Part shown: piece by piece, positions 2,277-61,990 of the stretch
Layout: the number at the start of each line of letters is the position of its first letter
Numbering within the stretch: position 1 is the stretch's first letter
Assembly (NCBI RefSeq): GCF_004010195.1
Contig: NC_057753.1
Location: 3,804,993 to 3,868,992 of the forward strand
DNA: 64,000 bases
Direction of reading: 5' to 3'
Source of the DNA: Chiloscyllium plagiosum
Taxonomy: Eukaryota
Notes under the pieces: generated by a model
What the model saw: only the letters and a program-made list of their open reading frames with translations
The model's database searches: none
What the model was told of the DNA's origin: nothing
Made by a program: the position numbers and the translations under genes

Positions 2277-2367
2277 GTCAAAAACTGCGGTGCTGGAAAA
2301 GCACAGCAGGTCAGGCAGCATCTGAGGAGCAGGAGAATCAACATTTCGGGTATAAGCCCTTCATCAG
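2277..2367 (-). mobile_element. Family A hammerhead/pLTR mini-insertion
   Basis: Reverse complement reads cctgatgaagggcttatacccgaaat. TSD gatgacag at 2269-2276 and 2368-2375. Confidence 0.8.
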
Positions 2368-2930
2368 GATGACAGTGAGCACCTTGCCATGATCTTCCCT
2401 ATGCCAAAACCTCTTGCCTTTAAACAACCACCAAACCTTAAACAGATCTTTGTTCGCAGCTAACTACCCAGCCTTCAGGACAACACCACCATCCAACCCT
2501 GCCTCGGCAACCACGGCAAGATGTGTCAGAGCATTGCCAAGGACACTACCATTACACGTGGGAACACCACCTACCATGTACACGGCAGGTACCCATGGCT
2601 CGGTTAACGTTGTCTATCTCATACGCTGCAGACAAGGATGCCCCCGAGACATGGTACAGTGGCAAGACCAAGCAGACGCTACAACAGATGAATGGACACT
2701 GCGCAACAATCGCCAGTCAGGGATGTTCCCTCCCAGTCAGGGAACACTTCAGTTGTCAGAGACAATCGGTCTTGGATCTTCGGGTAAATGTCCTCCAACG
2801 TTGACTTTGGGATACGTAACAATGCAGAGTCACTGAACAGAGGCTGACAGCCAAGCTCAGTAACCATGAGGACAGCCTCAACCCGGATCTTGGGTTCATG
2901 TCACACCACGGGTGACCCCACCACACAACA

Positions 2931-3400
2931 TTCTCTCTCTCTCACTCACTCTCACTCTCACTCCTACTTCCTCTCCCTCTCTTTCTCTCTCTCACTCCCA
3001 CTCTCTCTCACTCCCACTCACACTCTCTCTCTCTCACTCCCACTCATTCTCTCTCACTCCCACTCTTGCTCTCTCACTCTCTCTCTCTCTCTCACTCTCT
3101 GTCTCACTGACTCTTACTCTCTCTCACTCTCACACTCTCTCTCTCTTGCACTCGTTCATTCTCACTCTCTCACACACACGCTCTCTCTCTCACTCTATCC
3201 CTCTGTCTCACTCTCTCTCACACAGTCTTCCTCTCACTCTCGCTCTCACACACACTCTCACTCTCAGTCACTCACGCATTCGCACACATACACTTTCTCA
3301 CAGGTATATACACCGTCACATTTGCGCACACACTGTCTCAAGCACACATGCATTACCACACACACACTCTCTACCTCTCTCTCTCTCACACACACACACC
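2931..3400. repeat. Compound (CT)n/(CA)n low-complexity microsatellite
   Basis: Direct reading. It explains the Ser/Leu/His/Thr ORFs in the track. Confidence 0.95.
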
Positions 3401-3797
3401 CATTGGGTCTGCCCCTCTCCCTCACCCATGTAAGTGTGAATGGGTTGCATTTGTATTTGCAGATACATTCTATTTTGTTCAAAAAACACACAGTCTGTAG
3501 GCAGTCATTCAATGTGACATTTTATAAGAACCTACTTTGGAAATAAAACCAGTCTGACTCTAGGTTGGGACATAGACAGACTCTAAGCACACACCTGTAA
3601 TGTGTTGTCCGAGCTAAGATCTCACCTTTCTTTTATATACTGATAAAACCTGACAGCGTGTGTGGGTGTGTAGTTTCCTTCCTCAGGATAAAAGGGAACA
3701 AATAGGATGTGTTTTCAGTACCAATGAATCAAATTGTAATGCGGAACTCAGATGTGATATGGTTTGTTAGTGGGAGATGATCTGAATCAGTGTGGAA

Positions 3798-4082
3798 TTA
3801 GAATCCCTGGAGTGTGGAAACAGGCCTTTCGGTCCAACAAGTCCACACCGACCCACCAAAGAGTATCCCATCCAAACGCACTCCTCTACATTTACCCCTG
3901 ACTGATTCACGTGTCCTGCACATCTTTGTGATATCGGGAGGAAACCAGAGCAAACCCGCACAGACACGGTGGGGGGAGAATACACAAACTCCACACAGAC
4001 AGTTCCCAGAGGCTGGAATCGAAAATGAGTCCCTGGCACTGTGAGGCAACAGTGCTAACCACTGAGCCACTGTGCCACCCAC
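3798..4082 (-). mobile_element. HE1-type tRNA-derived SINE
   Basis: Reverse complement has tggctcagtggttagcact (A box), the body ggagtttg...ggtttcctccc and the tail ggcctgtttccacact. Confidence 0.85.
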
Positions 4083-4189
4083 AGTAATACTACAGGAAGC
4101 CTTAAAATCTGAGGGACAGTAACTGAGAATGTATTTTTGTAAAAGCAGCAATCCTGTTGCTATCCGATAGTGAAGCTGATGGAAGTGTT

Positions 4190-4352
4190 TGAAATGGAGC
4201 CATGCTGTGTAGATAGTGCTGTTGGACTGGGATGGACAAAGTTGAAAATCACACGACACCAGGTGAGATTTCCAAAGGGTTTATCTGAAAATGCGAGCTT
4301 TCGGAGCACAGCTCCTTGACTCTAACCCGGTGCCGTGACATTTTCAACTTTG
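4190..4352. mobile_element. Degenerate family B fold-back pLTR unit
   Basis: acaaagttgaaaatcacacg...gctttcggagc...ctcc...ttttcaactttgt. Inverted ends, similar to 13494-13674. Confidence 0.6.
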
Positions 4353-4739: not shown

Positions 4740-6300
4740 GAGTCTTCTATGAGGCAAATGTTGTTCCTGTGTTCAAGAAAGGGAATAGGGAAATCCCTGG
4801 GAATTACAGACCTATCCGTCTGTGGTAACCAAGGTGCTGGCAAGGATTCTGAGAAGTTGGATGTATGATTATTTGGAAGAACATAGTTTGATTGAAGATA
4901 GTGAGCGTGGCTTTGTGAGGAAAAGCGCAGCAGGTCAGGCAGCATCCAAGGAACAGGAGAATCGACGTTTCGGGCACAAGCCCTTCTTCTTGTGCCCGAA
5001 ACGTCGATTCTCCTGTTCCTTGGATGCTGCCTGACCTGCTGCGCTTTTCCAGCAACACATTTTCAGCTCTGATCTCCAGCATCTGCAGTCCTCACTTTCT
5101 CCTCGTGGCTTTGTGAGGGGCAGGTCATGCCTCACAAGCCTTATTGTGTTCTTTGAGGATGTGACAAGACAAGTTGACAAAGGTAAAGCAGTGAATATGG
5201 GGTATGTGGATGTCAGTAAGGCATTTGAAAAGGTTCCCCATGGTAGGCTCATTCAGACAGTTAGGAGGTATGGGATACAGGGAGATTTGGCTGTTTGGAT
5301 ACAGAATTATTGACTGAAGACAGCGAGTGGTAATGGATGGAAAGTACTCCGCCTGGTGGTCGATGACCAGTGGTGCTCCACAGGGATCTGTTCTTGGGCC
5401 CCTGCTCTTTGTAGTTGTTATAAATGACTTGGATAAAGAAGTGGAAGGGTGGGTTTGTAAGTTAGTAAGATGACACAAATGTCAGTGGTGTTGTAGATAG
5501 TGTCGAGGGTTTTTGCAGGCTACAACAAGACATTGACATGGACAGGATCCAATGCTGGGCTGAGAAGTGGCAGATGGAGTTCAAACTGCATAAATGCGAA
5601 GTGATTCATTTTGGAAAGTCGAGTTTGAATGCTGAATACAGGATTAAAGGCAGGATTGTTGGCAGTGTGGAGGAACAGCGGGATCTTGGGAGTCCACGTA
5701 CATAGATCTCCCAAAGTTGCCACCCAAGTTGATAGGGTTGTTAAGAAAGCAAACACTAATGAAAGTGTTTTGGCTTTCATTAACAGGGTTATCGAGTTTA
5801 AGAGCCGTGAGGTTTTGCTGCAGTTCTATGAAACACTGGTTAGTCCACACTTGGAATATTGTGTTCAGTTTTGATTGTCTCATTATAGGAAAGATATAGA
5901 TGCTTTAGAGAGGGTGAAGAGAGGTTGAGTGAGCGTGATTTAATAGAGGTATACAAGGTAATGAGAGGCATGGGATAGAGTGGATAGCCAGAGACTTTTC
6001 CCCAGGGCAGAAATGACTGTCACGAGGGGGCATAATTGTAAGGTGATTGGAGGAAGGTACAGGGGAGATGTCAGAGCTAGTTCTTTACCCAGAGTGTGGT
6101 GGGTGTGTGGGGTGCACTGCAAGCGGTGGTCCCGAGAGTCAGAGACATTCGGGACATTTAAGCGACAGCTGGACACGCACATGGATGGCAGTGAATTGAG
6201 GGGAGTGAAGGTTAGTTTGGTCTTAGATTAAGCTAAATGCTCGGCACAACATTGCATGCTGAAAGGCCTGTACTGTGCTGTGCTGTTGTATGTTCTGTTT
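4740..6300 (+). mobile_element. CR1 LINE ORF2 reverse-transcriptase/3' fragment
   Basis: GRSCLTSLIVFFEDVT...YVDVSKAFEKVPH, GAPQGSVLGPLLF and PHLEYCVQF. Stops and frameshifts present. Confidence 0.88.
4921..5103. mobile_element. Family A fold-back hammerhead/pLTR mini-element
   Basis: Near-perfect inverted arms. 15-bp TSD cgtggctttgtgagg at 4906-4920 and 5104-5118, inserted in CR1. Confidence 0.9.
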
Positions 6301-8279: not shown

Positions 8280-8790
8280 CTACAGTATGGAAACAGGCCA
8301 TTTGGCCCCAACAAGTCCACACTGACCCAATGAAGAATAACCCACCTCCTGCCCTATTACTCTACATTTCCCTGGACTAATGATGGAGGGCTTTTGCCCG
8401 AAATGTGTTTTTTCTGATCCTCGGATGCTACCTGACCTGCTATGTTTTTCCAGCACCACTCTAATGCACCTAACCTGCACATCCCTGAGCACTATGGGTA
8501 ATTTAGCATGGCCTATCCACACTAACCTGCACATCCTTGAGCACTATGGGTAATTTAGCCTGGCCTATCCACCCTAACCCGCACATCCCTGAGCACTATG
8601 GGTAATTTAGCATAGCCTATTCACCCTAACCTGCACATCCCTGAGCATTGTGGGCAATTTAGCATGGTCTATCCACCCTAACCTGCACATGCCAGAGCAC
8701 TATGGGTAATTTAGCATGCCCAATCCACCCTAACCTGCACATCACTGAAGATGATGGTCAATTTGGCGTGGCCAATCCACCCCAACCTTT
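8280..8790 (-). mobile_element. HE1-type SINE 3' part with an internal tandem expansion and a family A insertion (~8382-8460)
   Basis: tggaaacaggcc...aacaagtccacac SINE tail, the insert gggcttttgcccgaaa...ttccagcaccact, then the 52-bp array. Confidence 0.8.
8467..8787. repeat. Minisatellite of six ~52-bp units derived from the SINE body
   Basis: Unit caccctaacctgcacatccctgagcactatgggtaatttagcatggcctatc starts at ~8467, 8518, 8570, 8622, 8674 and 8726. Confidence 0.92.
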
Positions 8791-9125: not shown

Positions 9126-10207
9126 GTTGGAGCAATAGCTATTTTGGAATGAATCGCGCATACAAGTCTTGAGTACTGACACCTTTATTCGCGACATGTC
9201 GTGGGGAGAGAAAGGGCAACCAGTTAGATCGGATGGCCCCGAATCACTCCAACAGGTCACAGAGCTTCACGAGACTTTATAGCGTACAATTAGCTGACCA
9301 TTAACTACAGGATAATATGCAGGCACAGGACAACTTGCATAACATCAGCCCCAGACACATAGTGCCTGGTCGCAACCGTTAGTAACTGATAAGCAGGTGA
9401 TAGTAGACAATAGCTTCACTCATTTGCCCCAAAGGAGCCTTCCACATCCATCAAAGTTTCACCTGCACTTCCACACGTGTCATTTACTGTATCCGTTGCT
9501 CCCGATGCAGTCTGCTCTACGTTGCGGAGACAGGACGCCGACGTGCAGAGCGCTTCAGAGAACCTCTCTGGGGCACCCGCACCAACCAACCCCACTGCTC
9601 CGTGGCCAAACACTTCAACTCCCCCTCCCCCTCTGCCGAGGCCATGCAGGTCCTGAGCCTACTCCATCTCCACACCCTAACCACCCGATGCCTGGAGGAA
9701 GAACACCTCTCATTCCACCTTAGACCCTGCAACCACACGGCATCAATGTGGACTTCACTAGTTTCCTCATTTCCCCTCCCCACACCTTCTCCCAACCTCC
9801 CCCTCCCCCTCTGCCGAGGCCATGCAGGTCCTGGGCCTCCTCCATCTCCACACCCTAACCACTCGATGCCTGGAGGAAGAACACCTCTCATTCCACCTTA
9901 GACCCTGCAACCACACGGCATCAATGTGGACTTCACTAGTTTCCTCATTTCCCCTCCCCACACCTTCTCTCGGATGCTGCCTGACCTGCTGTGCTTTTCC
10001 AGCAACACACCCTTGAACTCTGATCTCCAGCATCTGCAGTCCTCACTTTCTCCTACAATGACTTCATTTGTTTATCGACTATCTGCGCAGCTACAAGACC
10101 GACCGTTTTTCAAGCAGACATGGGAAAACAAGCTTTGTTCAGGGCAGGCGCTGAATATGAGGCAAAATGGTTTCCACACATTTAGTATGTGACAAAATGG
10201 CTTCCAC
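9126..10207 (-). mobile_element. Probable solo LTR interrupted by a PLE fragment
   Basis: tgttgg...ttccaca termini and AATAAA on the minus strand near 9185. The end caaaatggcttccaca recurs at ~40490-40502. Confidence 0.45.
9427..10055 (+). mobile_element. Penelope-like element 3' fragment (family A; GIY-YIG plus pLTR tail) with internal 178-bp duplication
   Basis: Same sequence as 51470-51840 (VAKHFNSPSPSAEAMQVL...EEEHLSFHL). Ends in ccagcatctgcagtcctcactttctcc. Confidence 0.85.
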
Positions 10208-10539: not shown

Positions 10540-11075
10540 CCCGCAAATCTACCAACACACTGAAACAGCTACTGATGAACCTAAAGGACCATGTACCAAC
10601 AACCAGCAAAACCATTGTCATTTACAAAATACCCCGCAAGGACCATAACTAACACTACATTGGACAGACAGGCAGATAACTGGCCACCAGGATACACGAA
10701 CACCAACTAGCCACCAAAATACATGACCAGCTATCATTAGTATCCTTACAACACATCCATCCTGGGACAGGCTAAACAGAGACGCACACGGAATTCCTAG
10801 AGGCCTGGCATTCAAACCGGAACTCCATCAATAAACATATTGATTTGGACCCCATTTACCAAACTCTGAGAAAAAGAACCGGAAATGATATCACCCACCT
10901 TAACAGACCAAGACACACAGAGAGCAAGTGGGACGGAGCACCAACGTTTCACCGGAGGCTCACTGACGATGTTACCTAGCATGATGACGAAACGTCTGAG
11001 CACAAACCTGCCAACTCAGCAAGCAAACTTACAACCTGAACCTCAACCTAAGCTACAAATCTTCTCAGAAATCGC
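10540..11075 (+). mobile_element. Penelope-like element 3' fragment (family C)
   Basis: Translates with stops to VIYKIP...HYIGQTGR.LATRIHEHQLAT (GIY-YIG), followed by a hammerhead motif. Confidence 0.82.
10958..11001 (+). ncRNA. Minimal type I hammerhead ribozyme motif (family C)
   Basis: GCUCA-CUGACGA-U-GUUA(ccuagcauga)UGAC-GAAA-CGUC-UGAGC. Stem I is 5 bp, the core is complete, and helix III is the palindrome ACGU. Confidence 0.8.
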
Positions 11076-11122
11076 AAAGTAAAAGCTGCTAATTTTTGAC
11101 CTACGGATAGTAAAATCACAGT

Positions 11123-11225
11123 CTAAATTAGAGTGGTGCTGGAAAAGCACAGCAGGTCAGGCAGCATCCAAGAAGCAGGAAAATCCACGTTTCATGCGAA
11201 AGCCCTTCACCAGGAAAGCCCTTGC
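11123..11225 (-). mobile_element. Family A pLTR mini-insertion
   Basis: 16-bp TSD atagtaaaatcacagt at 11107-11122 and 11226-11241. Confidence 0.85.
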
Positions 11226-11449
11226 ATAGTAAAATCACAGTATCCCGACAATGCAGAAAGACACGATGGAGCCCCATTGATTCTGCACAGACTCTCGAAA
11301 CAGCATCCCACCCCCACCCCGTCATCCCACAAGGGGTCTTTCTTAACTTTGGCTAACCCACCAAACCTGAATATCCTTGGACACTACAGGACATTTTTAG
11401 CAATGGCAAATCTATCTAACACGCACATCATTGGACTGTGGGAGGAAAC

Positions 11450-12022
11450 TGGATTTGAAGGTGGACAATGTTAAAAATCACACAACATCAGGTTATAGTC
11501 CAACAGGTTTATTTGGAGGCACTAGCTTTCAAAGCGCTGCTTCTTTATCAGGTGGTTGTGCAGCAGGACCATACGGCACAGAATTTATAGCAACAGGATT
11601 GCAGTGTCATGGAATGTAATATTAAACAAATTTAGTTTGAGTCTTTCACCGTTTAGAGTGGTCATGTTAGTTTCAGTTCCTTCATCTGTAAATCCCAGAA
11701 CTGTTTTAAGGTTATGTTCTCAAGGTATGATTTGGAGGTGTCAGTGTTGGTCTGACGTGGACAATGTTAAAAATCACACAACACCAGGTTATAGTCCAAC
11801 AGGTTTATTTGGAGGTATGTATTGTATAAATTATATATAACAATCCTGGTCTTTTTCAATACATACTTTCAGTTGCATGACACTGTAAACCTTTGCTTTA
11901 AACTCTGTGTCTGACAATCTTATTCTCCACAACCACCTGATGAAGGAGCAGCGCTCCGAAAGCTAGTGCTTCCAAATAAACCTGTTGGACTCTAACCTGG
12001 AGTTGTGTGATTTTTAGCTTTG
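11450..12022. mobile_element. Family B pLTR complex: two antisense copies followed by one sense copy, nested in an HE1 SINE
   Basis: gtggacaatgttaaaaatcacacaac at ~11461 and ~11757, with a sense copy ending gttgtgtgatttttag. SINE pieces lie on both sides. Confidence 0.78.
11934..11968 (+). ncRNA. Minimal type I hammerhead ribozyme motif (family B)
   Basis: CAC-CUGAUGA-A-GGAGC(agc)GCUCC-GAAA-GCUA-GUG. Helix III is the palindrome AGCU. Confidence 0.82.
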
Positions 12023-13408: not shown

Positions 13409-13493
13409 GTTTGTCTGTGCAGTATTTTGTGTTACCGAGCCAAGAGGTTGTCTAGATGCAAGGGCGGAATGGTGGCCGTAAAAGGGACATGAT

Positions 13494-13674
13494 TTGGAGA
13501 TGCCGGTGTTGGACTGGGGTGTCCAAAGTTAAAAATCACACAACACCAGGTTATAGTCCAACAGGTTTAATTGTGTACTCCACCACCACCTGATGAAGGA
13601 GCGGCGCTCCGAAAGCTAGTGCTTCCAAATAAACCTGTTGGACTATAACCTGGTGTTATGTGATTTTTAACTTT
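13494..13674. mobile_element. Family B fold-back hammerhead/pLTR mini-element
   Basis: Inverted arms. 16-bp TSD gtaaaagggacatgat at 13478-13493 and 13675-13690. Confidence 0.9.
13587..13621 (+). ncRNA. Minimal hammerhead ribozyme motif (family B)
   Basis: CAC-CUGAUGA-A-GGAGC(ggc)GCUCC-GAAA-GCUA-GUG. Confidence 0.82.
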
Positions 13675-14086
13675 GTAAAAGGGACATGATGGGAACGAGG
13701 AGGGCGCATACACCAGCGTTCCGGGTGATCCCACGTACAAAGAAGCAGAATGTGAGAGGCGAATAAGGTGTCAGTATTGTCCTGTCTATAGTTAACAGAG
13801 GAATGGATGACACTTTCAGAAACAGTTAAACCAAGGTGCCAAAGTGGTATTATCACTGGACTAGCAACCCAGAGATAATTTTAATGTTCTGGGGAGCCAG
13901 GTTCAAGAGTGGAATTTGAGATTTTAAAAAAACACTGTGAATGATGATCATTTGGAGAAAAAAAAAATCTGGTCCACTAATCTCCTTTCAGCATGAGGAG
14001 AAACAAACCTGGGCTCATGGCATTGATCGAAGCTCCCATGAAGTCTCATGACATCAGGTAAGATGGGCAAGCATATTACCTGTTGA

Positions 14087-14262
14087 GGAGAAAGTGAGGT
14101 CTGCAGATGCTGGAGATCAGAGCTGAAAATGTGTTGCTGGAACAGCGCAGCAGGTCAGGCAGCATCCAGGGAACAGGAGAATCGACGTTTTGGGCATAAG
14201 CCCTTCTTCAGGAAACCTGAAGAAGGGCTAATGCCCTAAACGTCGATTCTCCTGTTCCCTGG
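14087..14262. mobile_element. Family A fold-back mini-element (CUGAAGA variant)
   Basis: Centre cttcttcagg-aaa-cctgaagaag. 14-bp TSD atattacctgttga at 14073-14086 and 14263-14276. Confidence 0.9.
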
Positions 14263-14631
14263 ATATTACCTGTTGATCATACCAGGACACACTTTGTCCA
14301 CTACCTAAGCTGATAAATCATATTCTTCCATGTCAAATGCTTGGATGGAGTACTGAGGATGCCAAGAGAACAAGACATACTTCAGGTGAGAGTTAAATTG
14401 ATGATCTTCTTGACCATGATAAAAGCACGTTTGGTCCACTGACATCCTTCAGGGAAGGAAAACTGACATTCTTATCCTGTCTGACCTAAATGTGACACCA
14501 CGTTCCCACCATGTGCATGACTCTTAACTGCCCTCTGAATCCATCAAAAAGTGTCAACACAATTAAACTGTGTGGATGGCCTGTATTGTGTAAGCTACTG
14601 GAATCTATGACGGCAAACACAGTCCTGTCTT

Positions 14632-14962: not shown

Positions 14963-14964
14963 AA

Positions 14965-18908: not shown

Positions 18909-19450
18909 CTGCTCACTGTTGGGATTTTGCTTCTAATTGTAACCAGCACTGAACTCATCTATTGGAATCTGAATCCACTGATGATATTAACTCCAGATCT
19001 CGTCGATTTGATTTTCTTTTTTTGCTTAGTATTAGCAATGAGCTTTGTGTTCAAGACGCAGTGTGTTTGTTCTTCGTAATATCTCGAATACGAGTTTGTT
19101 CCTTTTGCACACCTCTCCTTTTCCCCTGTCTCTTCCATCCTCAACAATTGCAAGGGGTTTATGGAGCTTCATTGAAACAACCTGTCCAGCTGCCTCTGCT
19201 GTTTCCCTGTCTTCCCTTGAGCTGAGCTGTCCCTAAATCTGCCCTTGTTGGTACCCGCTACTTGCATCTTTCTCTGGTTTCCCTCCTACATGCTGTCATA
19301 CACTGTGTGTGATTGGCGATCTTTATTGGTTGTCAGTCTTTGAAGGGAGCCCACCATTCAAACATTGTTTTTCCCACCGACCTCTCACTCTCGTCAATCC
19401 TGCCCAACTCTGTCCTTGCCCCTGTTGAAGACAGCTCTCCTCAATTGAAA

Positions 19451-19627
19451 ATCACCAGAGCACCAAGTTATAGTCCAACAGGTTTAATTGGAAGCACTAG
19501 CTTTCGGAGCGCTGCTCCTTCATCCGAAAGCAAGTGCTTCCAATTAAACCTGTTGGACTATAACCTGATGTTGTGTGATTTTTAACTTTGTACACCCCAG
19601 TCCAACACCGGCATCTCCAAACCATGA
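19451..19627. mobile_element. Family B fold-back mini-element
   Basis: Arms meet inside the hammerhead (ccttcat|ccgaaagc). 14-bp TSD ctcctcaattgaaa at 19437-19450 and 19628-19641. Confidence 0.9.
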
Positions 19628-21014
19628 CTCCTCAATTGAAATTTCTAACTCTGGATTGATGCTAGTGATTCTGCTGCATCATCCTGCACCCATACGATCC
19701 ACTGTCTCTTAAATGCTCTGCACTGACACCTTATCCACTTGGCCCATGATGTAGAGAAAAATTACTCCAGAATCAGATTTAGCAGCAAGTCAAAGCAGAG
19801 TTTACTAAACAAAAGCTTTTGAGAGCAGCGAGGTCACCCGAAGCGCAGGGTTTCGACCAAACAGTCTCCCCAGTTGAAGAGATCCACAGGCCTTTGTACC
19901 CTTAACCACAGCAAAAAGCACAGTTTCAATCACGTAAACTGTTCTTCAGACAGAACATCCCATGCGTATCATCCCCGCACAGGTTTCCGCCTGCTGAGAC
20001 TGCAGCCACTGGCGATTTTGGGTTTGTGGTTTTGCTCGGTAATAGTCATACTTCCTGTTTATCCAGCTTGCTCCTGCAGCAGTCAGCACTTTAGCAAGAT
20101 TGAGCACAAATTGCACAAAAGTGTGTCAACCGTCCCAGCATGCTTTACAAATGTAGTCAGCAATCCCAGAATGCTCTACTTCAGTCCCCCCCCCCACCTT
20201 ATGATCAGAGGCCATGGTCAACCAGGGATTGCAGGTGTGACAGTGCATTTTTATTTGTTCAATGGATGCAGACTTATATAGGAAGTTCCCCTGCATGCAA
20301 TCCAGGATAACGTGTTCCTCGCTGTCCCATACACTACCAATATTCAATCTATATTGGATAACTCTCATTATAACTACACTTTTTCATTTGCATCTTTATG
20401 TAATTTCCCTGCAGTTATGTTCCCCTGAATTCTTTTCTTTTTATAAACTTGCTCAGCAACGTTATTGTATCTGTTTTGTTCCTTGGGTCGAGCCAGATCA
20501 ATTTTGTTCTTGAACCTTTGAGATATCCTTGTTTCCCAGATAGTTGATGCTCTCCTCAACGAATAGTGCTACCCTCTTCCTTTTCTATCTTTTCTAAAAA
20601 ATACTTGTGCCCAGAAATAATTAACACTCAGTCTCTCCTTTCCTTGAGACAGCTGTCTGTTAGTGCAGCAATAGAACCAATGACTCTCTTTTTTTCAATC
20701 CTTCAAAAATATGTGCAAGTAAAACTTAATTGATTTGTCAATTCTCTGGCTTTTATCTCATTGCATTGCTATAGTTTCTGATATACATACTTCTTTGTTC
20801 TTAGTACCTAAAATTTAACGAATTTAGTTAAATGTACAACTGAAAATTTTCAAATTACGGAGTAGCCCTTTTTTGGTCTTTAACTGAACCTTTAAAAATA
20901 ACTATTATAAAATAACTTAAGTATTCTGGTGCAGAAAATTGCCATTCTCCTTTTTTTTCTAGTAATCTGGTACATTTAAATAAAATTAAATGTACTCATC
21001 CAATGCCCCTCATA

Positions 21015-43119: not shown

Positions 43120-43635
43120 TCATGGAATATCTCCTGAACACCAGTACCAATCAAGCCCACCGCCCCATGGTCGAACATTTCAACTCCCCCTCCCACTCTG
43201 CCGAGGACATGGAAGTCCTGGGCCTCCTTCACCGCCGCTCCCTCACCACCCGACACCCGGATGAAGAATGCCTCATCTTCCACCTTGGAACACTTCAACC
43301 CCAGGGCATCAATGTGGACTTCACCGGTTCCCTCATTTGCCCTCCCCCACCATGCCAGCTCATCACCATCCTCATGACCTGTCCTACTTGCCAATCTCCC
43401 TTCCCACCTATCCATTCCACCCTCCTCTTCAACCTATCACCTTCATCTCCACCCCATCCACCTATTGTACACTTAGCTACCTTCTCCCCAGCCTCACCCC
43501 CTCTCATTTATCTCTCCATCCCAGAAGCTCCCTGCCTCTATTTCTGATGAATGGCTTTTGCCCAAAATGTCGATTTTCCTGCTCCTCGGATGCTGCCTAA
43601 CCTGCTGTGCTTTTCCAGCACCACTCTAACTTGAC
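43120..43635 (+). mobile_element. Penelope-like element 3' fragment plus family A pLTR, nested in a minus-strand CR1
   Basis: HFNSPSHSAEDMEVLGLL...IFHLGTLQPQGINVDF, then a decayed hammerhead ctgatgaatggcttttgcccaaaatgtc. Confidence 0.85.
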
Positions 43636-44769
43636 TACTTTCTATTTACCCTGTCCATGTCTCTCATAATATTCTGCACTTCAGTCAGGTTCCACATCAA
43701 CTTTTCTGCTCCAAAGAAAATAACACAAGCTTATCCAGCTTCTCTTCATAGCTGTGACACACCCTCCCCTGCATTCTGGGGTACATCATCTGCACAGCCT
43801 ACAATGCAATTGCACCCTTCCTTTAGTGCTGTGAGCAGAACTGCAGAGTGTACTCCAGCTGTGACATAAGCAAAGTTCAGTACATCACCAACATAACCTC
43901 CCTGCTCTTATAATCAGTACCCTAATTGATAAAGGCAAACATTACCATCTTCTCTACCTTATTAGCCTATCCTGCTGCCTTCAGGGGTCTGTGAACAAAC
44001 ATTCCAAGATGCCTCAGTCCCACTGAGCTTTCTGGATATTGAGGTTGATTGGTCTGCAATTACATGGGTCCTTGTTGTAATCAATGTGGTCATCACTGAG
44101 AGCAGCCATAAGGATGAAAACCTGTACAAACATATGTCATTAGTTAAAAGAGAAACGTGTGCATTGGATTTATACATACTGACTACTGTAATATTGACCC
44201 TGAACATGACTGTGTTGTCACTCACCTGTTCATGGTGAATTGGCACTCTCCACATAAGCCACTGATTCTAGGGTAAAGGGAGTATGTCAAATAGACCTGA
44301 GCCATTACGCATGCAATGTCATCATCGTGGACTGGACCTGACTGCATGGTTGCAGACATAAATGCATCAAAATGGGTGTAAAGTCTGGGTGAGATGAGGA
44401 AACACGTTGATTCTAAACAGCAATTTTGTGAACAGAGAAATGATCTGAAGTGAGAAAATAATTAAGTATCCCCAAGAAGGTTGTTATTTGTCAGTGTGAT
44501 CAACATTAAAAACCATCGCTTTGATTGGATGTGTGCTGCACAATATTACTAACATAATTCAGTCATCTCCAGATATTTCAAGAGAGGCCCATGACACGAG
44601 AAACATTCCACTCATTCAAAACGTAAACACCTGCCGAGCAGCAGCTGTACTGGCCTGTTTGTTGCAATCACTTTAATTGTTGCAAAATACCTCCCAGGAG
44701 TCTCTCATGAGCTATAATAGGGACTGTTCTACAGTGAATAGCAGAACATGCACAAAGCCATTGATGAAA

Positions 44770-50584: not shown

Positions 50585-50955
50585 GTGGCTTGGTTCTTAG
50601 CATTGCTGCCTCACAGGGCCAGGGACCCGGGTTCAATTCCAGCCTCGGCGGCAAGATTAGAGTGGTGCTGGAAAAGCACAGCAGTCAGGCAGCATCCCAG
50701 GAGCAGGAAAATCGACCGTTCCCCCTTCATCAGAAATCCAGCCTCGGACGACTGTCTGTCTGGAGTTTGCACATTCTCCCCATGTCTGCGTGGGTGTCTT
50801 CCCACAATCCCAAGATGTACAGGCCAGGTGTCCAAGGATGTGTAGGTTGGGTGCATTAGCCAGGGCAAATGCAGTGATGGGGTTGGCGGATACGTTGCTC
50901 TTTGAAGGGTCCGTGTGGACTTGTTGGGCCAAATGGCCTTTTTCCACACTGTAGA
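50585..50955 (+). mobile_element. HE1-type SINE carrying a family A insertion (50649-50736, -)
   Basis: 11-bp TSD tccagcctcgg at 50638-50648 and 50737-50747. Confidence 0.87.
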
Positions 50956-51366
50956 GATGCTAAATTTAAAAAGAAACTTGGAGAATATGAACAGGCTTGG
51001 TCGCATCGGTGGAGAGATAACAGAATTCACGATTTCAGTTCCGTGACTCTTCTTCCACAGATTCTCCAGCAGCTTTAGTACCACTTTTGTTTCAGATTTT
51101 CAGTATCCGCAGTTCTGCATTTTACTTAGAGAGAACCATCGATTTCGGTCTTGAAGATATTGAGTAGTTGACAATATACAGCCCTTCTGTGGTACAGAAT
51201 TGCAAACAATTGCTGTCAAAGACTGTGTTCGCTGATTGAGTCATCGCTAGTTTGAAACTTTTTAGACAGGAACCAGCAACTTGGGGTGAATGTGCGCTGT
51301 CGTCCTGTATGGGACAACTACTTCATACCCAGCATACATTGAATATATTGACCCAGCATACATTGA

Positions 51367-52116
51367 CTACCTGGTCAGGTCCACGCCCCCCTACGACCCA
51401 CCCTCCCATCCTGGCACTTGCCACCGCAGGAATTGTAAAACCTGTGCCACACCTCCTCCCTCACCTCCATCCAAGGCCCTAAAGGAGCCTTCCACATCCA
51501 TCAAAGTTTTACCTGCACATCCACTAATATCATTTATTTTATCCGTTGCTGCCGATGCGGTCTCCTCTACATTGGGGAGACTGGACGCCTCCTAGCAGAG
51601 CACTTTAGGGAACATCTCCGGGACACCCGCACCAATCAACCACACCGTCCCGTGGCCCAGCATTTCAACTCCCTCTCCCACTCTGCCGAGGATATGGAGG
51701 TGCTGGGCCTCCTCCACCGCCGCTCCCTCACCACCAGACGCCTGGAGGAAGAACGCCTCATCTTCCGCCTCGGGACACTTCATCCCCAGGGCATCAATGT
51801 GGATTTCAACAGCTTCCTCATTTCCCCTTCCCCCACCTCATCCTAGTTTCTCCGGACTTGTCCGACCTACCCAGCTCCTTTTCCACCTATCCACTCCACC
51901 CTCTCCTCCCTGACCTATCACCTTCATCTCCTCCCCCACTGACCTATTGTACTCTATGCTACTCTATCCCCACCCCCACCCCCCTCTAGCTTATCTCTCC
52001 ACGCTTCAGGCTCTCTGCCTTTATTCTGATGAAGGGCTTTTGCCCGAAACGTCGATTTTGCCTGTCCTCGGATGCTGCCTGAATTGCTGTGCTCTTCCAG
52101 CACCACTGATCCAGAA
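51367..52116 (+). mobile_element. Penelope-like element 3' part (Cys-linker + GIY-YIG, Neptune-like) ending in the family A pLTR
   Basis: CHRRNCKTC...FTCTSTNIIYFIRCCRCGLLYIGETGRLLAEHFREH...VAQHFN...GINVDF. Flanked by catacattga repeats. Confidence 0.9.
52022..52056 (+). ncRNA. Minimal type I hammerhead ribozyme motif (family A)
   Basis: AUU-CUGAUGA-A-GGGC(uuuu)GCCC-GAAA-CGUC-GAU. Predicted cleavage after 52053. Confidence 0.82.
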
Positions 52117-54082
52117 CATACATTGAATATATGCTTATCCTTTGAGCAGCAAGATGGTCTTTTCAAGAAGTTTTTTTTTAAGATTGTACTTTTTAATCTC
52201 TTGGTTCGTCTTGTGTTATCATCGAGTTAAACTGAAGAGTAAAATCCTGTAAAAGGTCAATGAATCTCACTGCCTTTACTTAAGGGTAGAACCCTAAAAA
52301 ATTGTCCTTGCTCATCATTTCTCCCCACTTCCTGTCGTTCTTTCTTGTGTTGTTTTTGTTTTAACATTCGTCTTCCATTTCTTATTCGTTTCTTCCTCTT
52401 TCTTCCCCTCCTCTTCCTTTTATCTGCACCTCCTCCTTTTCTTCCACCTCCCCCTCACCCTACTCCGGTGCAATTCGAGCACAAAACTGTTGGGTTTATA
52501 TGGCACAGCGCCTAACACTACCAAAGGGGAAAGAAAATGTCTAACTGGAGCATCGAAGAGTCAGAGATCTACAGCACACACACAAAAAGTCAATTGCATC
52601 CATCTCGTCAAAATAAAAGTGAGGAAAAGGTGATATGGAACTCTGCAGCTACCTATCTTTTTATAGAATTTTTAACGTCTGCTAGTATGTTATCGTCCAA
52701 TTATTTGTGTCTTATATGTTATAATGTCTTGGATTTAATCCATATTTGCTGCATGCGGAACACCAGCCAATGGGTGCCACACTTTATTACAATGCAGATG
52801 GATCAGAAACAAAAACTAATTTAAAAGTAGACTGAAATTTCCAAATAGTTGCAGTTCCCATTGAGGGGATAGATCACTTCGTTAATACCAATGCCTTGAA
52901 TGTCAAGCTAAGATCAAGACTTAACTAGTTATCTAGCTCTGTCACTTCCATTTAGCAACACCACAAGGATGCATGTCACGCTGATGCATTAATTTAGTAT
53001 AGATTTAGTACACTTGCTTCGTCAGACCAACATTTATATTTTGTGAAAAACTTAGAAAAAGCAATAAGATTCCATCCAAAAGCAATAAATAATGCTACAA
53101 ATTATAGTTTTATTTCATTGTTTAGAATTTTTAAATGAGGCATCGAAATCAAAGTTCAGGAAGCAAGCACACATACCAAAAGAAAATTGCACTTTGTTGG
53201 CACCACCAGAAGATTAACTTTGGTTCTGCTTATATTTCCTCTTGATGTAACATTCTATTTTTCTCCTGTTTATAATGAAGTCTCCCAAATCTAAATGTTG
53301 TCTGGAAATGAATTAATGCACAATTGAGCTATTAGAACAATGGATTAGAAATAAAGCCAAGGAAAAAATCGTAAGGTGGATATCTTAGACAAAAGAAATA
53401 CACATACACAAATGTAAGAAAAATTGCAACAGATAAACACTGGGAGGGCTAAGTAGCATCCATAGAAGAATCCATGATTTAATAGAGCTTCTCTGTCTAG
53501 TGTAAAGTGATATGCTAATATGAACTTGCTGACTCTGAGTGTAAAGGGCAAAAGTGAGAACACTTCTGGGAGAAGTTGGTTCACTCACCATAATTGAGAG
53601 GGAGTAGGAGAGTGGACTCTCCTTGTTTTTCATTGCTTCTTTTAAATTGCTCTTCCTCTATTTCTGATTCTTTCCATTCTTCTTCTGCTTCTCCATGTTT
53701 ATCTCCAACTCCTTCTTCTCCACTTCCCCGCTGTTGCTACCCCTGTGCAACTCTGGCATTAAAGCTATGGATTGGTATGATACATCCTGTAACATTACAA
53801 AGGAGTGTAAAAAAAAAACTCACACAGTAAAGAGCTGTCCAACTGAGGAGTCATGGAGAATAAGAAGTACTGGGAAAGGACTCTCAGCTTATTTCACCCA
53901 TGCCAGCCAAAAGCAACAGCGAGAAAAGAATGGTATGAAACTCTCCAGCTACACATTGTGGAGGGGAGTTTAATGCACTCTCAACATCTACTTTGAGCTA
54001 TCATATAACTAAAGGATAACTGATAACATCTAATACTGTATGTCTTTCGCGTTTTTGATGACTTGGATACAAGGCAGGCATG

Positions 54083-54179
54083 GCCAAGATTAGAGTGGTG
54101 CTGGAAAAGTACAGCAAGTCAGGCAAGTGCAGGAAAATCGACATTTGGGGCAAAAGCCCTTCATCAGGAATGCCTCCTC
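54083..54179 (-). mobile_element. Family A pLTR mini-insertion
   Basis: 13-bp TSD caaggcaggcatg at 54070-54082 and 54180-54192. Confidence 0.87.
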
Positions 54180-54289
54180 CAAGGCAGGCATGCCGCAGGC
54201 CAAATGCCACACACAAGATATAAAACTTTAATGCAACACAAGACTGTATTGTATACTGTCTCTACTATATATAGTGATATGACTGAACT

Positions 54290-56924: not shown

Positions 56925-57103
56925 CATCTACCAATCACATTCTCAGCTATCTTGCCCCCAGCCCCACCCCTCACCCTCCTATTTATCTCTCAGCCCCCTT
57001 CTCTCCCTCACCCCTGATGAATGGCTTTTGCCAAAATGTCGATGCTCCTGCTCCTCGGGTGTTGCCTGACCTGCTGTGCTTTTCCAGCACCACTCTTTTT
57101 GAC
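56925..57103 (+). mobile_element. Family A PLE 3' region/pLTR
   Basis: Matches 43460-43635. Decayed hammerhead ctgatgaatggcttttgccaaaatgtc. Confidence 0.78.
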
Positions 57104-58016
57104 TAGGTGGATATGACACAGAGGGTGGTTAAAGGAGAACAGTACTGGATACCTGGCATCTCAGGTTACAAGGCTTTTAGTAGAAACATGCAGATTTAAA
57201 AAAAGAGGGGATGTGACAGTCTTGGTCAATGAATGAATGTGATGTAGTTTCTGAAATAAAATCTGTATGGTTGGAGGTGAGAATTAGGAAGGTCGCTGTG
57301 ATCTTCCCACAAAGTAGGGAGGAATTAGAAGACAGAAGACATTTGTGGGCAGATTGTGGAAGCCTGCTCAAGAGGTAGGGTTGTGATAGTTGCTGCTTTT
57401 AATAACATGGGGCATGGAGGGGGAGAAATACCTGCAAAGTATGCGGAAGGTCATTCTGCAACCCTACTTTTACAGTACTACAAGGGAGAGAGCTATACCT
57501 GCTCTGATTCTCAGTAATGAGGCAGGACAAGTGCAGAACCTTGGATTGGGGAAGCTTTTGGGAAATACCAGTCAATGTAATAAGATTCAATATTCAACTG
57601 GAAAAGGATCACAATCACTCAAGGATTAAACTCCCAGACTGGAAAAGGGCAGAGTTTTAGGGGTCTAAGATTGAACTGGAGCACATTGATTGGAAACACA
57701 TCTTGGTGGACAATGCAATCGATTAAAAATGGGCTACTTTCAAATAGAGATGAATAGGATGAAAAGTGGGTCTTTACCAATGAGAAATAAATAAGTGGCA
57801 TCCAAATCAGAAGACTAAGAATGTTAATGACAAAACAAGGAAGAGAAAGAAGGTACATGATGCATATTGGAATAATAATAGCAACAGAATTAAGGAAAAG
57901 TATCTTGAATACAGGGGAGAGACAAAGGCTGGAAAAAACAAAGGCTAAGAAAAAACTTAAGGAGAGATTGGCAGGCTGTGCTAAAACAGTCAAATATTTT
58001 TCAAATATATTATTAG

Positions 58017-58800: not shown

Positions 58801-58832
<32 letters not shown>

Positions 58833-59099
58833 GTTTGCTTGTACCTTCTATGCCAATGGGGTGTTATGGGATTGTTGCAAGTAGTTGCAACAGCATCGTT
58901 CAGTTGGGGTAATCTGTTAGGTCTTTGGATAGGTTAAGTTCTTCTATATTCAGTTCTCTTTTGTTCATGTTTCATTTGGTAATCTTGGTAATATTCTTAA
59001 AACTAAGCGGTCAGACTAGTTGCATCACTTCTGGGATAAAACAACTAGCAAAAGTTATTTCTTAAGATGTTTTGAGGGGGTCTGGCTTGGTCTGTCACA
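58017..59099 (+). mobile_element. Solo LTR with nested CR1 3' fragment (~58235-58742)
   Basis: tgtga...tcaca termini and a perfect 4-bp TSD ttag (58013-58016, 59100-59103). Confidence 0.8.
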
Positions 59100-59184
59100 T
59101 TAGTGAAAGATGAGCGAAGCATAAAGCGGGGTCCATAAGGATCAAGGAAGGTAAACCACTCAGTGAATCAAAGGATATGGCAGA

Positions 59185-59500
59185 GGGGGGAGTTGGCTCA
59201 GTGGTTAACACTGCTGCCTAACAGCACCAGGGACCCAAATTAGATTCCAGCCTCGGATGACTGTATGGAGTTTGCAAATTCTACCTTTGTCTGCATGGGT
59301 TTCCTCCCACACTCTAAAGGTGTGCAGTTTAAGGTGAATTAGCCATGCTAAATTGTCCACGGTATTCAGGGATGTGTAGATTGGGTGCATTAGTCAGGGT
59401 TTAAATGTAGGGGGATGGGTCTGGATGGGTGACTCTTCGGAGGGTCGCTGTGGATTTGTTGGGCCACAGAGCCTGTTTCCACACTGTAGGGATTTTATGA
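59185..59500 (+). mobile_element. HE1-type SINE
   Basis: tggctcagtggttaacact head and gcctgtttccacact tail. Confidence 0.83.
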
Positions 59501-61513
59501 TCTACTAATGAATATTGTGTTCCCATATTTATAAACTAGAAGATTTTGACTGTGGCCCAGGTGAAAATGTGGGTGTTGGCTAACTGAGCAGTATAATGAT
59601 AAATAAAGAAATGTTAAAAAGGCTGTTAGCAATCCACAAAGGAAAGTCACCAGGCCCTGGTGGGTTGCATCCTAGATTGCTGAGAGAGTTCAGGCAGAAC
59701 ATTGCTGGTGCTGTTGACAGAAATTTCCAGGCTTCTATGAACATAACATTTGTCCTGAGCAACTGGGGATTTGAAAATATGATGTCATTTTTTAGGAAGG
59801 TGGAAAAGGATAACACTGCTTTTAGCGTAAATGAAAATCAAATATCAACTGGGTGAAGCTAAGATGGAGGACTACTTATGTACCAAACAAAATAAGCTGT
59901 AAGTTATAGGACCAAGCGATTCCACTGTCAACAGATCAGATGTAAGCTATGCAATTGAAATTCTGTGCGGCTCCGAAGAGTGGTAGTACTTTACATAAAA
60001 AGATCAATAGTAGTGTGAAGATATCAGAAGCATTCAACTGGTAGCAGACTTTTGTGCAATCAGGAGTGATGACAAGGTGATGTAAAGACAAAGGATGGGT
60101 CTAAACATAGAGAAACATGAAGAACACTGGACAGCAAGAAAAATAGGTTTGGGGATGGGAGTGAAAGAGAAGCTTATGGGTGGATACTGAGGGCTTAGTA
60201 TAGTATAATGCACAGATAACTATATGAAGAGCTGGGGTAAGCTTAAAAGCAAAGCGAATGCACGAGAAAGTATTGGTCGATATAAAAAAGGAAAAGTCGG
60301 CATCTTTTTTAAAAAATAAATGTATAGTTATATAAAAATCAAGGCGATAAAAAGTGAAAGAACTATGTTGGAAATCAGAAAGGTAACATTGTGTGGAACC
60401 AGAAGAGGTGAGCATGGTCTCCATGGTTACTTTACATTAGTACACTGATGCTGAGAAGCAGCAGTGCGTACTCTCTACAAGGTGAAACACCCACATTCCG
60501 CAGAAGCACTTCCCATATCCATGACCACTAGAGCCAAGAGCAGCAGATACCTGGGAATACCACAAACTGCAAATCCTCCACCAAGTCACTTGTCATCTCA
60601 ACTTGGAAATATGTGACTGTTCCTTTTGTGGTTTTGGGTCAATTATTTTGGAATCTTCCCCCCCCATTGCATTGCGGGTTTACATGCAATGGTTGATAAA
60701 AGCAGCTCACCACCACCTTCTCAAGTGCCTCTGGGCACCGACTATAAATGCCAGTCCATCCAGCGACCCTCATGTCCATTGAGTGAATTGAAAACGATGT
60801 GAAATATTAGCAGTTAACCTCCAGAAAGAGGGATGCTAGTGGGTTTAGCAATCTTGAAAGTACATGAATCTGCAGGCCTGGATGTGATATATCTTTTGGG
60901 AGGTAAGGGAAGTGATATTTGAGTCTCTGGAAATAACTTGCAGATTATCAATGCCAGAAGACTAAACGTTAGGACCCTGGAAAGTATTGAAGCTCAGGGG
61001 GAATTTTGTGTGCGTATCCAGAGACCCCAGAAGATATTCAGGCAGTAGATAAGGTCGTGTAATATTAGTCTAAAATATCTTTACCGTATCTTTAAGGTTT
61101 GATCCAAAATGAATGCAAGAAAACACATGCACTTTGATATGAAACAATTTTATTAGCTTTATATACTTTAGATATATGCAAACTAAAAGTGAATTTATTA
61201 GCTTAAACCACTTCAGGCATATTCAACAAGAGAGTCTTACGTTCTTTCCCTTATTGAGGGTCCCACAGTGACAGCTCGCACTCAAGAGCTCGATCTCAAT
61301 TTCGCAACATTCGTGAACTCAGTCTGATGGTGAAGTCCATGAAACTGTGAAAAGTTGCCAATATTTATAGTGCATTGAATTTGATGTTATGTGCTGGATT
61401 GCCTCTTCTGAGTATTATTCTCAAACATTTCTCTGTGCTTGGTGATCATAAGCAAGTCCAGGTACCGCTGCAAAACAGCCTACTTCCACACCAAGACCGC
61501 CGCCTTGCACAAT

Positions 61514-61643
61514 GTGGGCAAAAGTGAGGACTGCAGATGCTGGAGATCAGTGTTTAGATTAGAGTGGTGCTGAAAAAGCACAGCAGGTCAGGCAGCATCC
61601 GAGGAGCAGGAAAATCGACGTTTCGGGCAAAAACGTCGATCTT
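61514..61643 (-). mobile_element. Family A mini-element with a very short inverted arm
   Basis: atcgacgtttcgggcaaa-aacgtcgat. TSD cttgca(c/t)aat at 61504-61513 and 61644-61653. Confidence 0.83.
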
Positions 61644-61894
61644 CTTGCATAATATCCTCCACTCTCGTTACTTTCCAGTCTTCATCAATTCCTTTATTGC
61701 CATCTCCACCTAACCCTTAATAATATGGCTTTTGGATATCACTTTTGGATTCACACACTGCAGGTGGCTGAAAGTGTTTTGGGAATATTTGATATGATGA
61801 GCTGCAGCACAGAGTGTTATGCTGGAACTGTATAAAATGCTTGTTACAGGTGCAATTGAGTTGTCCTTTCATGATAGGAATGGTCTCACATTTA

Positions 61895-61990
61895 GGAATT
61901 CCTGATCAAGGGTTTATGCCCGAAACGTCAAGTCTCTTGCTCCTCGGGTGCTGCCTGCCCGCTGTGCTTTTCCAGCACCACACTCTCGAC
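61895..61990 (+). mobile_element. Family A pLTR mini-insertion
   Basis: ttcctgatcaagggtttatgcccgaaacgtc...ttttccagcacca. Confidence 0.78.

Follow-up and report, generated by a model that had tools for sequence, protein, structure and literature searches.

We focused on a 64-kb stretch of the Chiloscyllium plagiosum genome, referred to here as the window. The window contains 24 insertions built from 31 arms (Table 1). Single and palindromic insertions number 14 and four in family A and two and three in family B, with one insertion of family C. Hence, seven of the 24 are head-to-head palindromes. A preliminary description of this DNA had counted about 20 short non-coding insertions, and about 20 of the 24 indeed have no coding sequence. 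The nine TSD pairs that it listed are all exact in position and length, whereas the palindromic form and the 16-bp TSD round an endonuclease-coding fragment (51333/52117) had escaped it. It also placed the units inside CR1s and SINEs. This is correct for three of the nine TSD-flanked units (4906, 29600 and 50638) but not for the other six; among those, the flanks of five are unique in a 1.6-Mb set and the remaining unit lies between non-colinear repeats. Similarly, the units do carry a hammerhead core or its remnant, but the strict core and stem II are retained in just 6 of the 31 arms. One copy per 3 kb is a fair estimate for the window (one per 2.7 kb) but not for the genome. In a 1.15-Mb sample, taken at fixed positions elsewhere in the genome, we found 203 insertions. 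This equates to one per 5.7 kb, so that the window is about twice as dense as the sampled average, and extrapolates to ~600,000 insertions genome-wide.

Table 1. Insertions in the window (positions counted from the first nucleotide of the window)
Position	Strand	Feature
2282..2370	-	Single family A arm with short, tail-less end; begins at hammerhead 5' edge; TSD none found
4201..4317	-	Old family B arm with tail, ~75% to seed
4906..5118	.	Family A2 palindrome: - arm 4919-4989, + tailed arm 4989-5102; 15-bp TSD 4906/5104; splits CR1-type RT repeat
8381..8465	+	Family A single arm, short end; then 52-bp tandem array
9407..10053	+	GIY-YIG fragment (178-bp internal duplication) fused via deletion to 3' part of tailed A2 unit
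10931..11075	+	Family C unit plus UTR; core of hammerhead at 10963; predicted fold has 5-bp helix I
11107..11241	-	Family A single arm; 16-bp TSD 11107/11226
11460..11720	-	Family B short-end arm running on into B-type UTR
11727..12021	.	Family B palindrome; + arm with ~110 nt UTR, intact core at 11937; TSD none found
13478..13690	.	Family B palindrome with tailed - arm and short + arm (core intact at 13590); 16-bp TSD 13478/13675
14073..14276	.	Family A2 palindrome; 14-bp TSD 14073/14263
19437..19641	.	Family B palindrome; 14-bp TSD 19437/19628
24905..25016	+	Tailed single arm of family A2, internally deleted; core at 24910
29600..29760	+	Tailed single arm of family A; 14-bp TSD 29600/29747; splits CR1-type RT repeat
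33128..33380	.	Family A1 palindrome with tailed - arm and short + arm; 14-bp TSD 33128/33367
37980..38100	+	Family A3 single arm with tail; begins in stem II
39260..39475	.	Family A1 palindrome; TSD none found
43120..43637	+	Coding copy, 5'-truncated: C-terminus of GIY-YIG, UTR rich in pyrimidines, short-ended family A unit
50638..50747	-	Family A single arm; 11-bp TSD 50638/50737; splits abundant SINE (its two flanks are colinear at 111 further sites)
51333..52132	+	5'-truncated coding copy: CX4CX2C linker, GIY-YIG, UTR, A3 unit, intact core at 52026; 16-bp TSD 51333/52117
54070..54192	-	Family A single arm; 13-bp TSD 54070/54180
56942..57105	+	Family A unit with ~70 nt UTR
61515..61646	-	Family A arm with tail and very short inverted remnant
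61898..61995	+	Family A single arm, short end; begins at -4

Each unit is the terminal module of a Penelope-like element (PLE). Briefly, this module, the pLTR, consists of a minimal hammerhead and a "tail". As first proposed, the hammerheads are of the minimal type I. The core boxes, a bulged base before stem II and a palindromic 15.2-16.2 are all present, helix III is shrunk to the palindrome and helix I is 2-5 bp long. The units lack the ~6 bp helix I and looped helix III of canonical type I hammerheads. In family A, helix I is weak (2-4 bp), there is no conserved ATG at stem II and the monomer folds no better than shuffled sequences (z = -0.9, -1.9 and +0.5). The core and stem II are kept in 64 of 198 sampled family A arms, 42 of them with the CG palindrome; in the sampled arms the hammerhead loop is variable and the stem conserved. 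Family B is unrelated in sequence to family A. The family C core fails the strict core filter, yet its predicted fold retains a helix I. Rfam hammerhead models gave no match to the window at E<=1. The unit has two 3' ends ~35 nt apart, at about +85-94 and +124-126.

GIY-YIG-coding fragments had been named as the likely partner of family A, which terminates two of them (43120-43637 and 51367-52116). Both were confirmed and a third lies at 9407-10053. Compared with the Pfam GIY-YIG model, the frame at 51439-51843 scored under the curated cut-off (E=0.0045) and copy L082 scored over it (E=2e-5). The RVT_1 match in copy L063 was under the curated cut-off (E=1e-5). An ORF encoding RT plus GIY-YIG at the C-terminus is linked to the terminal module, and L160 is a continuous natural copy. 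In this partial tandem the unit occurs at 2722 and 6202 (period 3480 bp) and is also the 5' leader immediately upstream of the ORF. Likewise, 6 of 20 ORF-5' loci extend back into the unit. The module is present both upstream and downstream of the ORF, as in a PLE pLTR partial tandem. A CX4CX2C motif lies directly upstream of the endonuclease in the 51.4 kb copy of the window, L082, L083 and L160. The Neptune/Nematis type is defined by a linker, CX2-5CxxC, that precedes GIY-YIG (Craig et al. 2021, PMC8557442). Judged by sequence, family A has the Neptune/Nematis-type linker.

Head-to-head palindromes account for about one third of the sampled insertions and far outnumber tail-to-tail pairs (63 versus 2). 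In 57 of 60 classifiable palindromes a tailed arm was paired with a tail-less arm (41/44 in family A, P=8e-10; 16/16 in family B). Lone arms were tailed in 45 cases and short in 43. A TSD accompanied 37 of 63 two-arm forms versus 15 of 132 lone arms; the TSD finder was positive for 4 of 400 random position pairs. This association persisted within age classes (26/33 versus 8/42 and 11/30 versus 5/35). The TSDs are 11-20 bp long (mode 14-15) with a GC content of 0.31 versus 0.41 for the background, and one TSD encloses the whole palindrome. TSDs of the same length also flank kilobase-long coding insertions. Matches of 12-16 bp bracket 9 of 26 EN-linked long insertions, although two are probably due to chance.

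Ordinary random 5' truncation of full-length elements is a barely credible source of the units. Insert lengths do grade from 47 to 2954 bp. However, as the preliminary description anticipated, the distribution is not smooth. For family A, 88 of 136 5' ends lie within a 20-nt interval at the hammerhead 5' edge (-10 to +9; mode -4/-3), where 15.9 are expected (P ~1e-48 under constant hazard). When no reference was used, 62 of the 80 arms in tight palindromes were again found to start in this interval. The spike recurs in family B (22 of 33 ends at -12 to +2), and random truncation is refuted for both families in the sample. An imperfect analysis of family C (17 arms, older) gave no such spike at the hammerhead. 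Past the spike, ends spread smoothly over the UTR and ORF at ~0.5%/nt. There was no peak at the cleavage site (+28), where the hazard was 0.8%/nt versus 0.7%/nt just upstream.

The units are end modules of endonuclease-coding PLEs, and we consider it probable that they are dead-end products and that palindromes result from priming on both target strands. The Penelope protein of Anolis nicks and extends both strands, and is predicted to form a dimer; its cDNA begins at two internal sites bounding the tail and ribozyme cleavage is dispensable in vitro (Frangieh et al. 2024, PMC11167929). Here, GIY-YIG would cut AT-rich DNA with a stagger of ~14-15 nt. Each 3'-OH would then probably prime at one of the two start sites. 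From priming in the leader copy of the module, cDNAs would extend to the very 5' end of the uncleaved RNA and run off there, ~4 nt short of the core on its 5' side. We are evenly divided as to whether this boundary is the transcript start. The sequence at -4 is what we take to be a candidate initiator-like element. In Drosophila Penelope the start site is inside the pLTR, 46 nt before an intron ending at helix I (PMC4209133, PMC2377424). A transcript start needs an added assumption because 0 of 19 near-full-length copies begin at -4, their ends lying at +9 to +270; bound protein or primer might block long cDNAs. Two cDNAs would be joined head-to-head, via 1-4 nt microhomologies or short fillers, to give a palindrome with a TSD. 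A single priming would leave a lone arm, mostly without a TSD. Re-copying of such lone units would be inefficient, as the ORF-proximal RNA required by the Anolis protein downstream of the start sites is missing from them. The strict tail/no-tail pairing has no in vitro counterpart, since no difference in start site was seen there between top and bottom strands (PMC11167929). Taken in full, the scheme is more tentative: the ~600,000 copies could be natural products of a dimer that primes both staggered nicks, one per start site, on uncleaved RNA beginning at the hammerhead. If true, inverted pLTR, one-sided tail and TSD are all explained by a single mechanism, and most insertions would make no use of the ribozyme. 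In L1 twin priming, both target strands prime cDNA, resulting in an inverted segment within one TSD. There, inverted and direct parts are different RNA stretches; here, one stretch is copied into both arms, starting at two fixed sites.

With the same origin, the -4 boundary could instead reflect endonuclease trimming at ATT, or end-joining guided by the hammerhead fold, which we think possible if somewhat doubtful. The ATT at -4 to -2 of family A is the motif that the Anolis enzyme prefers to cut (PMC11167929), in families A and B the boundary falls on the 5' strand of helix I, and the start points of near-full-length copies fit this reading. Yet the family B spike interval (-12 to +2) contains no ATT, and a polymerase would be expected to stall on the 3' side of stem II rather than on its 5' side. 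Element-to-element joints in contigs, which jump to distant element parts, also converge on -4 (6/15 and 4/12 among those listed), and the position of the Drosophila start site also speaks against this reading. An unlikely origin for the palindromes themselves is one priming followed by fold-back, whereby a single cDNA or antisense transcript self-primes a hairpin that the endonuclease resolves at two sites, leaving a tail on one arm. Antisense self-priming (Arkhipova et al. 2013, PMC3846280) and EN resolution (PMC8557442) are related ideas. Consistent with fold-back, both arms have the same loop variant in 16 of 17 palindromes (0.25 expected), a result that also fits the two-priming scheme, some junctions read as tight hairpins and 3 of 29 lone arms bear a short piece of the arm's own 5' end in inverted form. 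However, the shorter-ended, tail-less arm extends further 5' in 30 of 49 palindromes (the reverse in 14, ties in 5), which copy-back of a single cDNA could not produce. Moreover, copying back a tail-less cDNA cannot give the other arm a tail, and many junctions carry fillers between two arms both reaching about -4. A hybrid, with annealing to a second primed cDNA, still requires two primings.

The preliminary description saw the units as a separate non-autonomous, retrozyme- or SINE-like class. Such a family would have its own internal promoter, possibly be circularised and be re-copied in trans by Penelope protein. The very high copy number and defined 5' and 3' ends agree with this, internal initiation would make the RNA 3' end irrelevant (PMC11167929), an unrelated rotifer gene was mobilised by pLTRs alone (PMC3846280) and re-copied lone units would resemble the originals. 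Label changes on a tree (25 versus 28.6 +/- 1.9 when shuffled) were borderline, with 26 of 500 shuffles as low; therefore, a mild excess of short-copy lineages is possible. Against this, short and UTR/EN-linked copies are mixed in every subfamily, and UTR-linked copies occur in all five stem-II loop variants. The largest short-only clade had 5 members versus 6.3 in shuffles (229/300 reach it), a comparison of limited power (116 arms, 81 columns). Palindrome junctions are made anew, with 41 classes among 46; one class was seen 5 times, spanning different loop variants and both polarities. At most three adjacent same-strand pairs were found among the 274 sampled arms, none a clean dimer. A dedicated short RNA was not supported by the only raw-read library with matches, a poly(A) single-cell library blind to small circles. 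Reads in this library look like passive read-through: both strands are equal and 91% continue into unrelated flank, with no pile of starts or ends (a weak test here). Furthermore, the Anolis protein requires RNA to +172 of the ORF, past the start sites (PMC11167929). An independent class is unlikely because subfamilies are shared, junctions vary from copy to copy and these data revealed no tandem arrays and no dedicated RNA. We conclude that the units are likely dead-end short by-products of autonomous PLEs rather than a self-spreading mini-element.

The class has been described before: earlier publications cover minimal hammerheads, both solo and on opposite strands, as well as inverted pLTRs, tails and TSDs. 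PLE insertion units (PMC3846280; PMC8557442; Schostak et al. 2008, PMC2377424) share the head-to-head inverted copy, a one-sided tail (30-40 bp there), a TSD round the whole unit, partial tandems and solo pLTRs. Unlike those, most events here hold the module alone, and TSDs exceed the 8-10 bp of rotifer examples. Metazoan PLE hammerheads (Cervera and De la Pena 2014, PMC4209133) have the same CUGANGA core, extra base before stem II and G-C closing pair, with palindromic ACGU/AGCU replacing helix III. As here, most are single dispersed motifs, "probably related to truncated PLEs", with opposite-strand pairs 100-700 bp apart. The short helix I of family A differs. Copy number here is about a hundredfold above the 4,000-9,000 motifs of coelacanth and frog, although counting methods differ, and no shark was found in the available text of that survey.

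Poseidon of Anolis carolinensis (PMC11167929) also has its two internal RT start sites just 3' of the hammerhead, nicks and extends both strands at AT-rich targets, in line with our AT-rich TSDs, and shows no trace of ribozyme-cleaved ends. Family A differs in its linker and in lacking the ATG at stem II. That a single event uses both start sites as a pair is our proposal and does not appear in the Poseidon data available. Non-LTR retrozymes (Cervera and de la Pena 2020, PMC7229834; Li, Clavereau and Pollet 2026, bioRxiv 10.64898/2026.07.22.740005) are likewise short, non-coding, pLTR-related and dispersed as monomers, with type I hammerheads and long TSDs. However, they form head-to-tail tandem repeats, whereas our units are single or head-to-head and do not span cleavage site to cleavage site. 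Those of PMC7229834 have canonical hammerheads and circular RNAs, in contrast to the minimal hammerheads here.

Formation of PLE tandem and inverted structures has been named an open problem (PMC8557442), and an in vitro PLE system is available (PMC11167929). The strict mirror-image layout hints at how PLEs likely insert. The value of our data is quantitative. Counts for tail pairing, TSD by architecture and the 5' spike were not found in the accessible text of the PLE literature, and give the in vitro system sharp predictions: a tailed arm joined to a tail-less arm, a TSD tied to the two-arm product, and 5' ends before, not at, the ribozyme cut. At such density, 200-bp TSD-flanked palindromes will be mis-called as MITEs or microRNA hairpins; the palindromes match Rfam miRNA models, and hairpin-type models were the only ones to match them.

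The window contains 24 insertions built from 31 arms, each arm being one copy of the unit, the terminal hammerhead-and-tail module of Penelope-like elements (PLEs). The arms, identified by BLAST with natural seed copies, belong to three mutually unrelated families (A, B and C). Seven of the 24 insertions are head-to-head palindromes, an architecture not singled out in the preliminary description. The nine target-site duplications (TSDs) listed there are all exact, in position and in length. The accompanying claim, that these units lie inside CR1s and SINEs, holds for three of the nine, where a repeat is interrupted colinearly. We take the interrupted repeats to be two CR1-type reverse transcriptase (RT) fragments and one SINE. 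A strict hammerhead core with stem II is kept in just 6 of the 31 arms, and an Rfam scan of the window returned no hammerhead family at E ≤ 1.

The assembly containing the window spans 3.56 Gb. The sample comprised 120 stretches, each 10 kb long, placed at fixed round positions along 35 large contigs (1,150,472 non-N bases). A further 40 loci, picked for coding sequence, were excluded from the counts. The sampled stretches held 203 insertions: 92 single arms, 46 short palindromes and 7 long palindromes of family A; 23, 17 and 1, respectively, of family B; and 17 insertions of family C. This density, one insertion per 5.7 kb, extrapolates to about 600,000 genome-wide. Hence, the window is roughly twice as dense as average.

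To describe positions, we set the C of CUGA to 0; the predicted hammerhead cut then falls before +28. Copies encoding the GIY-YIG endonuclease (EN) terminate in a family A unit, after a pyrimidine-rich UTR of ~210 nt. These linked copies contain RT and GIY-YIG domains, plus a CX4CX2C linker. Such linkers are a mark of Neptune/Nematis PLEs in the accessible text of PMC8557442. A protein search with the window endonuclease gave 142,871 first-look candidates, a number that is not a copy count, and 150 were scored. The family B unit is placed after a different GIY-YIG and a microsatellite-rich UTR (locus L035). The family C unit follows a third protein, which, from a motif, we assume to be Poseidon-like. 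One locus, L160, is a gap-free natural partial tandem: inverted short arm, EN-UTR-unit, ORF, EN-UTR-unit, with a 10-bp TSD. Hence, the unit is also a leader directly upstream of the ORF. Units have two 3′ ends, at about +85–94 (tail-less) and +124–126 (tailed). They correspond to the tail and to the two sites where RT starts in Anolis Poseidon, as given in the available part of PMC11167929.

Two-arm insertions follow a simple rule. Among 53 of family A, 44 were classifiable, and 41 of these consist of one tailed and one tail-less arm (two are short-short, one long-long). Single A arms divide 45 to 43 between tailed and tail-less ends. In family B, all 16 classifiable two-arm insertions (of 18) are tailed plus tail-less. 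TSDs measure 11–20 bp (mode 14–15, GC 0.31) and surround 37 of 63 short palindromes versus just 15 of 132 single arms, a contrast kept in young and old copies. The two-arm architecture extends to 2.9 kb, RT included (L063), and 9 of 26 EN-linked long copies are bracketed by matches of 12–16 bp, two of them probably by chance. Head-to-head pairs also occur in family C (L003, L019, L036, L095 and L142); their arms include coding sequence or UTR, and the point where they meet lies well upstream of the hammerhead.

The palindromes could be copies of a master MITE-like unit. We reject this because their junctions are heterogeneous, with 41 classes among 46 and either 1–4 nt overlaps or short fillers. 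Insertion of a second copy into a first is unlikely, since both arms share one TSD. The stem-II loop is identical between arms in 16 of 17 palindromes. Homogenisation of arms after insertion is not supported: the median arm-arm distance is 0.058 and the partner is the nearest neighbour in 1 of 24. The arm extending further 5′ is the shorter-ended one in 30 palindromes and the tailed one in 14, with 5 ties.

The 5′ ends of family A were mapped by aligning arms to 18 natural EN-linked copies. Of 198 arms, 15 were set aside as censored, either by N or at the edge of a stretch, which left 183. Of the 136 arms reaching +9, 88 stop within −10..+9, compared to 15.9 expected from the flanking hazard; the mode is −4/−3. 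In family B, 22 of 33 arms reaching +4 (58 arms in total) stop within −12..+2. The family C tally is imperfect and serves as a hint only. By the preliminary description, a smooth length distribution, as from random 5′ truncation of full PLEs, would count against it; families A and B are spiked instead. Ribozyme cleavage was rejected as the origin of these ends. There is no peak at +28, and across +26..+34 the hazard does not exceed that across +10..+25. Flanks upstream of single spike arms are ordinary (pyrimidine fraction 0.51 versus 0.76 in UTR-linked arms). Hence, the spike conceals no UTR. A reference-free count places the start within −10..+9 for 62 of 80 arms of tight palindromes, palindrome arm starts being limited by seed length (−2 or −6).

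In the most likely mechanism, the two target strands would be cut about 14–15 nt apart by the autonomous protein, and each nick would prime at one or other of the two start sites inside the element. With a leader copy of the module as template, the cDNAs would extend to run-off close to the 5′ end of the RNA, immediately ahead of the hammerhead. The two cDNAs would then join head to head. We favour dual priming, since copy-back of a single cDNA cannot yield a 5′-longer tail-less arm with a tailed partner. In two-arm insertions read by eye, the TSD at the tailed end was often seen to start with C or CT, which may as well be the element's last bases; this suggests primer-template pairing of 1–3 nt. 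If RNA beyond the tail is needed, as it is for the Anolis PLE protein in the available part of PMC11167929, lone units would serve poorly as templates.

We are less sure of the nature of the −4 boundary than of dual priming. It may be a transcript start. The sequence at −4 is presumably initiator-like, which we count in favour. In contigs, joints between elements converge there too (6 of 15 and 4 of 12 among the rows listed), and Drosophila Penelope starts within its pLTR, near the hammerhead, in the accessible portions of PMC4209133 and PMC2377424. However, 19 near-full-length copies of subfamily A3 end at +9 to +270 of the leader hammerhead, none at −4, which counts against a simple start. 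Alternatively, the boundary might be set by trimming at ATT or by joining guided by the fold. Loose contig ends at −4 were left out of the evidence because subfamilies diverge upstream of this position. Of the 19 near-full-length copies (L141–L159), 14 have their ends in the interval from the tail to the ORF start region, which would fit blocking of long cDNAs by a factor bound there; a circular template fits as well.

A separate non-autonomous, retrozyme- or SINE-like class had been proposed for the units. For a clade test, 150 aligned arms, less 10 censored and the second arms of 24 pairs, gave 116 (83 short, 33 UTR-linked). The biggest short-only clade has 5 members, versus a shuffled mean of 6.3, and UTR-linked members are present in all five loop variants. 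Label changes on the tree number 25 versus 28.6, a borderline result (as low in 26 of 500 shuffles). Tandem arrays are essentially absent from the sample. Head-to-tail arrays mark non-LTR retrozymes in the available text of PMC7229834; shark units lack two of the features defining that group. With no short-only clade beyond shuffles and arrays near absent, the separate class is unlikely. RNA was checked in a single-cell poly(A) run, of which about 2% was read and 1407 reads were aligned. In this library, unit coverage is equal on the two strands, 91% of reads extend into unrelated sequence, and read starts or ends do not pile up. This fits passive read-through, small circles being outside the library's reach.

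PLE insertions with an inverted pLTR, a one-sided tail and a TSD are described in the accessible parts of PMC3846280, PMC8557442, PMC2377424 and PMC8969392. The shark units are members of this type. They contain minimal hammerheads of the kind in PMC4209133, the available text of which already describes motifs dispersed singly and pairs on opposite strands. The accessible text of PMC6765202 and PMC6155905 adds nothing on sharks. Our search of the open literature listed no paper on the shark units or on two-site or paired PLE priming; the families may already be catalogued in Dfam or Repbase. Supplements of a 2026 bioRxiv preprint (retrozyme families, one chondrichthyan genome) may bear on prior description. 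We conclude that the units are real and very abundant, and belong to a known PLE insertion type, not to a new class of mobile element. Their value lies in the counted rules, through which PLE integration can be tested.

Further features of the window and of two other C. plagiosum loci (L035, L160)
Sequence	Position	Strand	Feature
Window	2393–3600	+	Broken family B-type GIY-YIG, then (CT/CA)n microsatellite UTR
L035	7972–9068		Laid out like window 2393–3600, ending in a B unit
L160	2437/2438 joined to 2723/2724		Joint in contigs of runs X3 and X15, skipping 285 nt; endonuclease region to unit position −5/−4, without GT..AG ends
Window	8469–8788		SINE-like segment in six 52-bp tandem copies, directly after a family A arm
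Window	18360–18908	−	C2H2 zinc-finger array, 84-nt period
Window	about 26760–26890		C2H2 zinc-finger array, 84-nt period
Window	27463–27771		C2H2 zinc-finger array, 84-nt period
Window	34906–35768		LINE RT 3′ end twice, 300 nt each, 96% identical, 563 nt apart
Window	49268–50323	−	Intronless 351-aa ORF, by eye presumably a seven-transmembrane rhodopsin-class receptor
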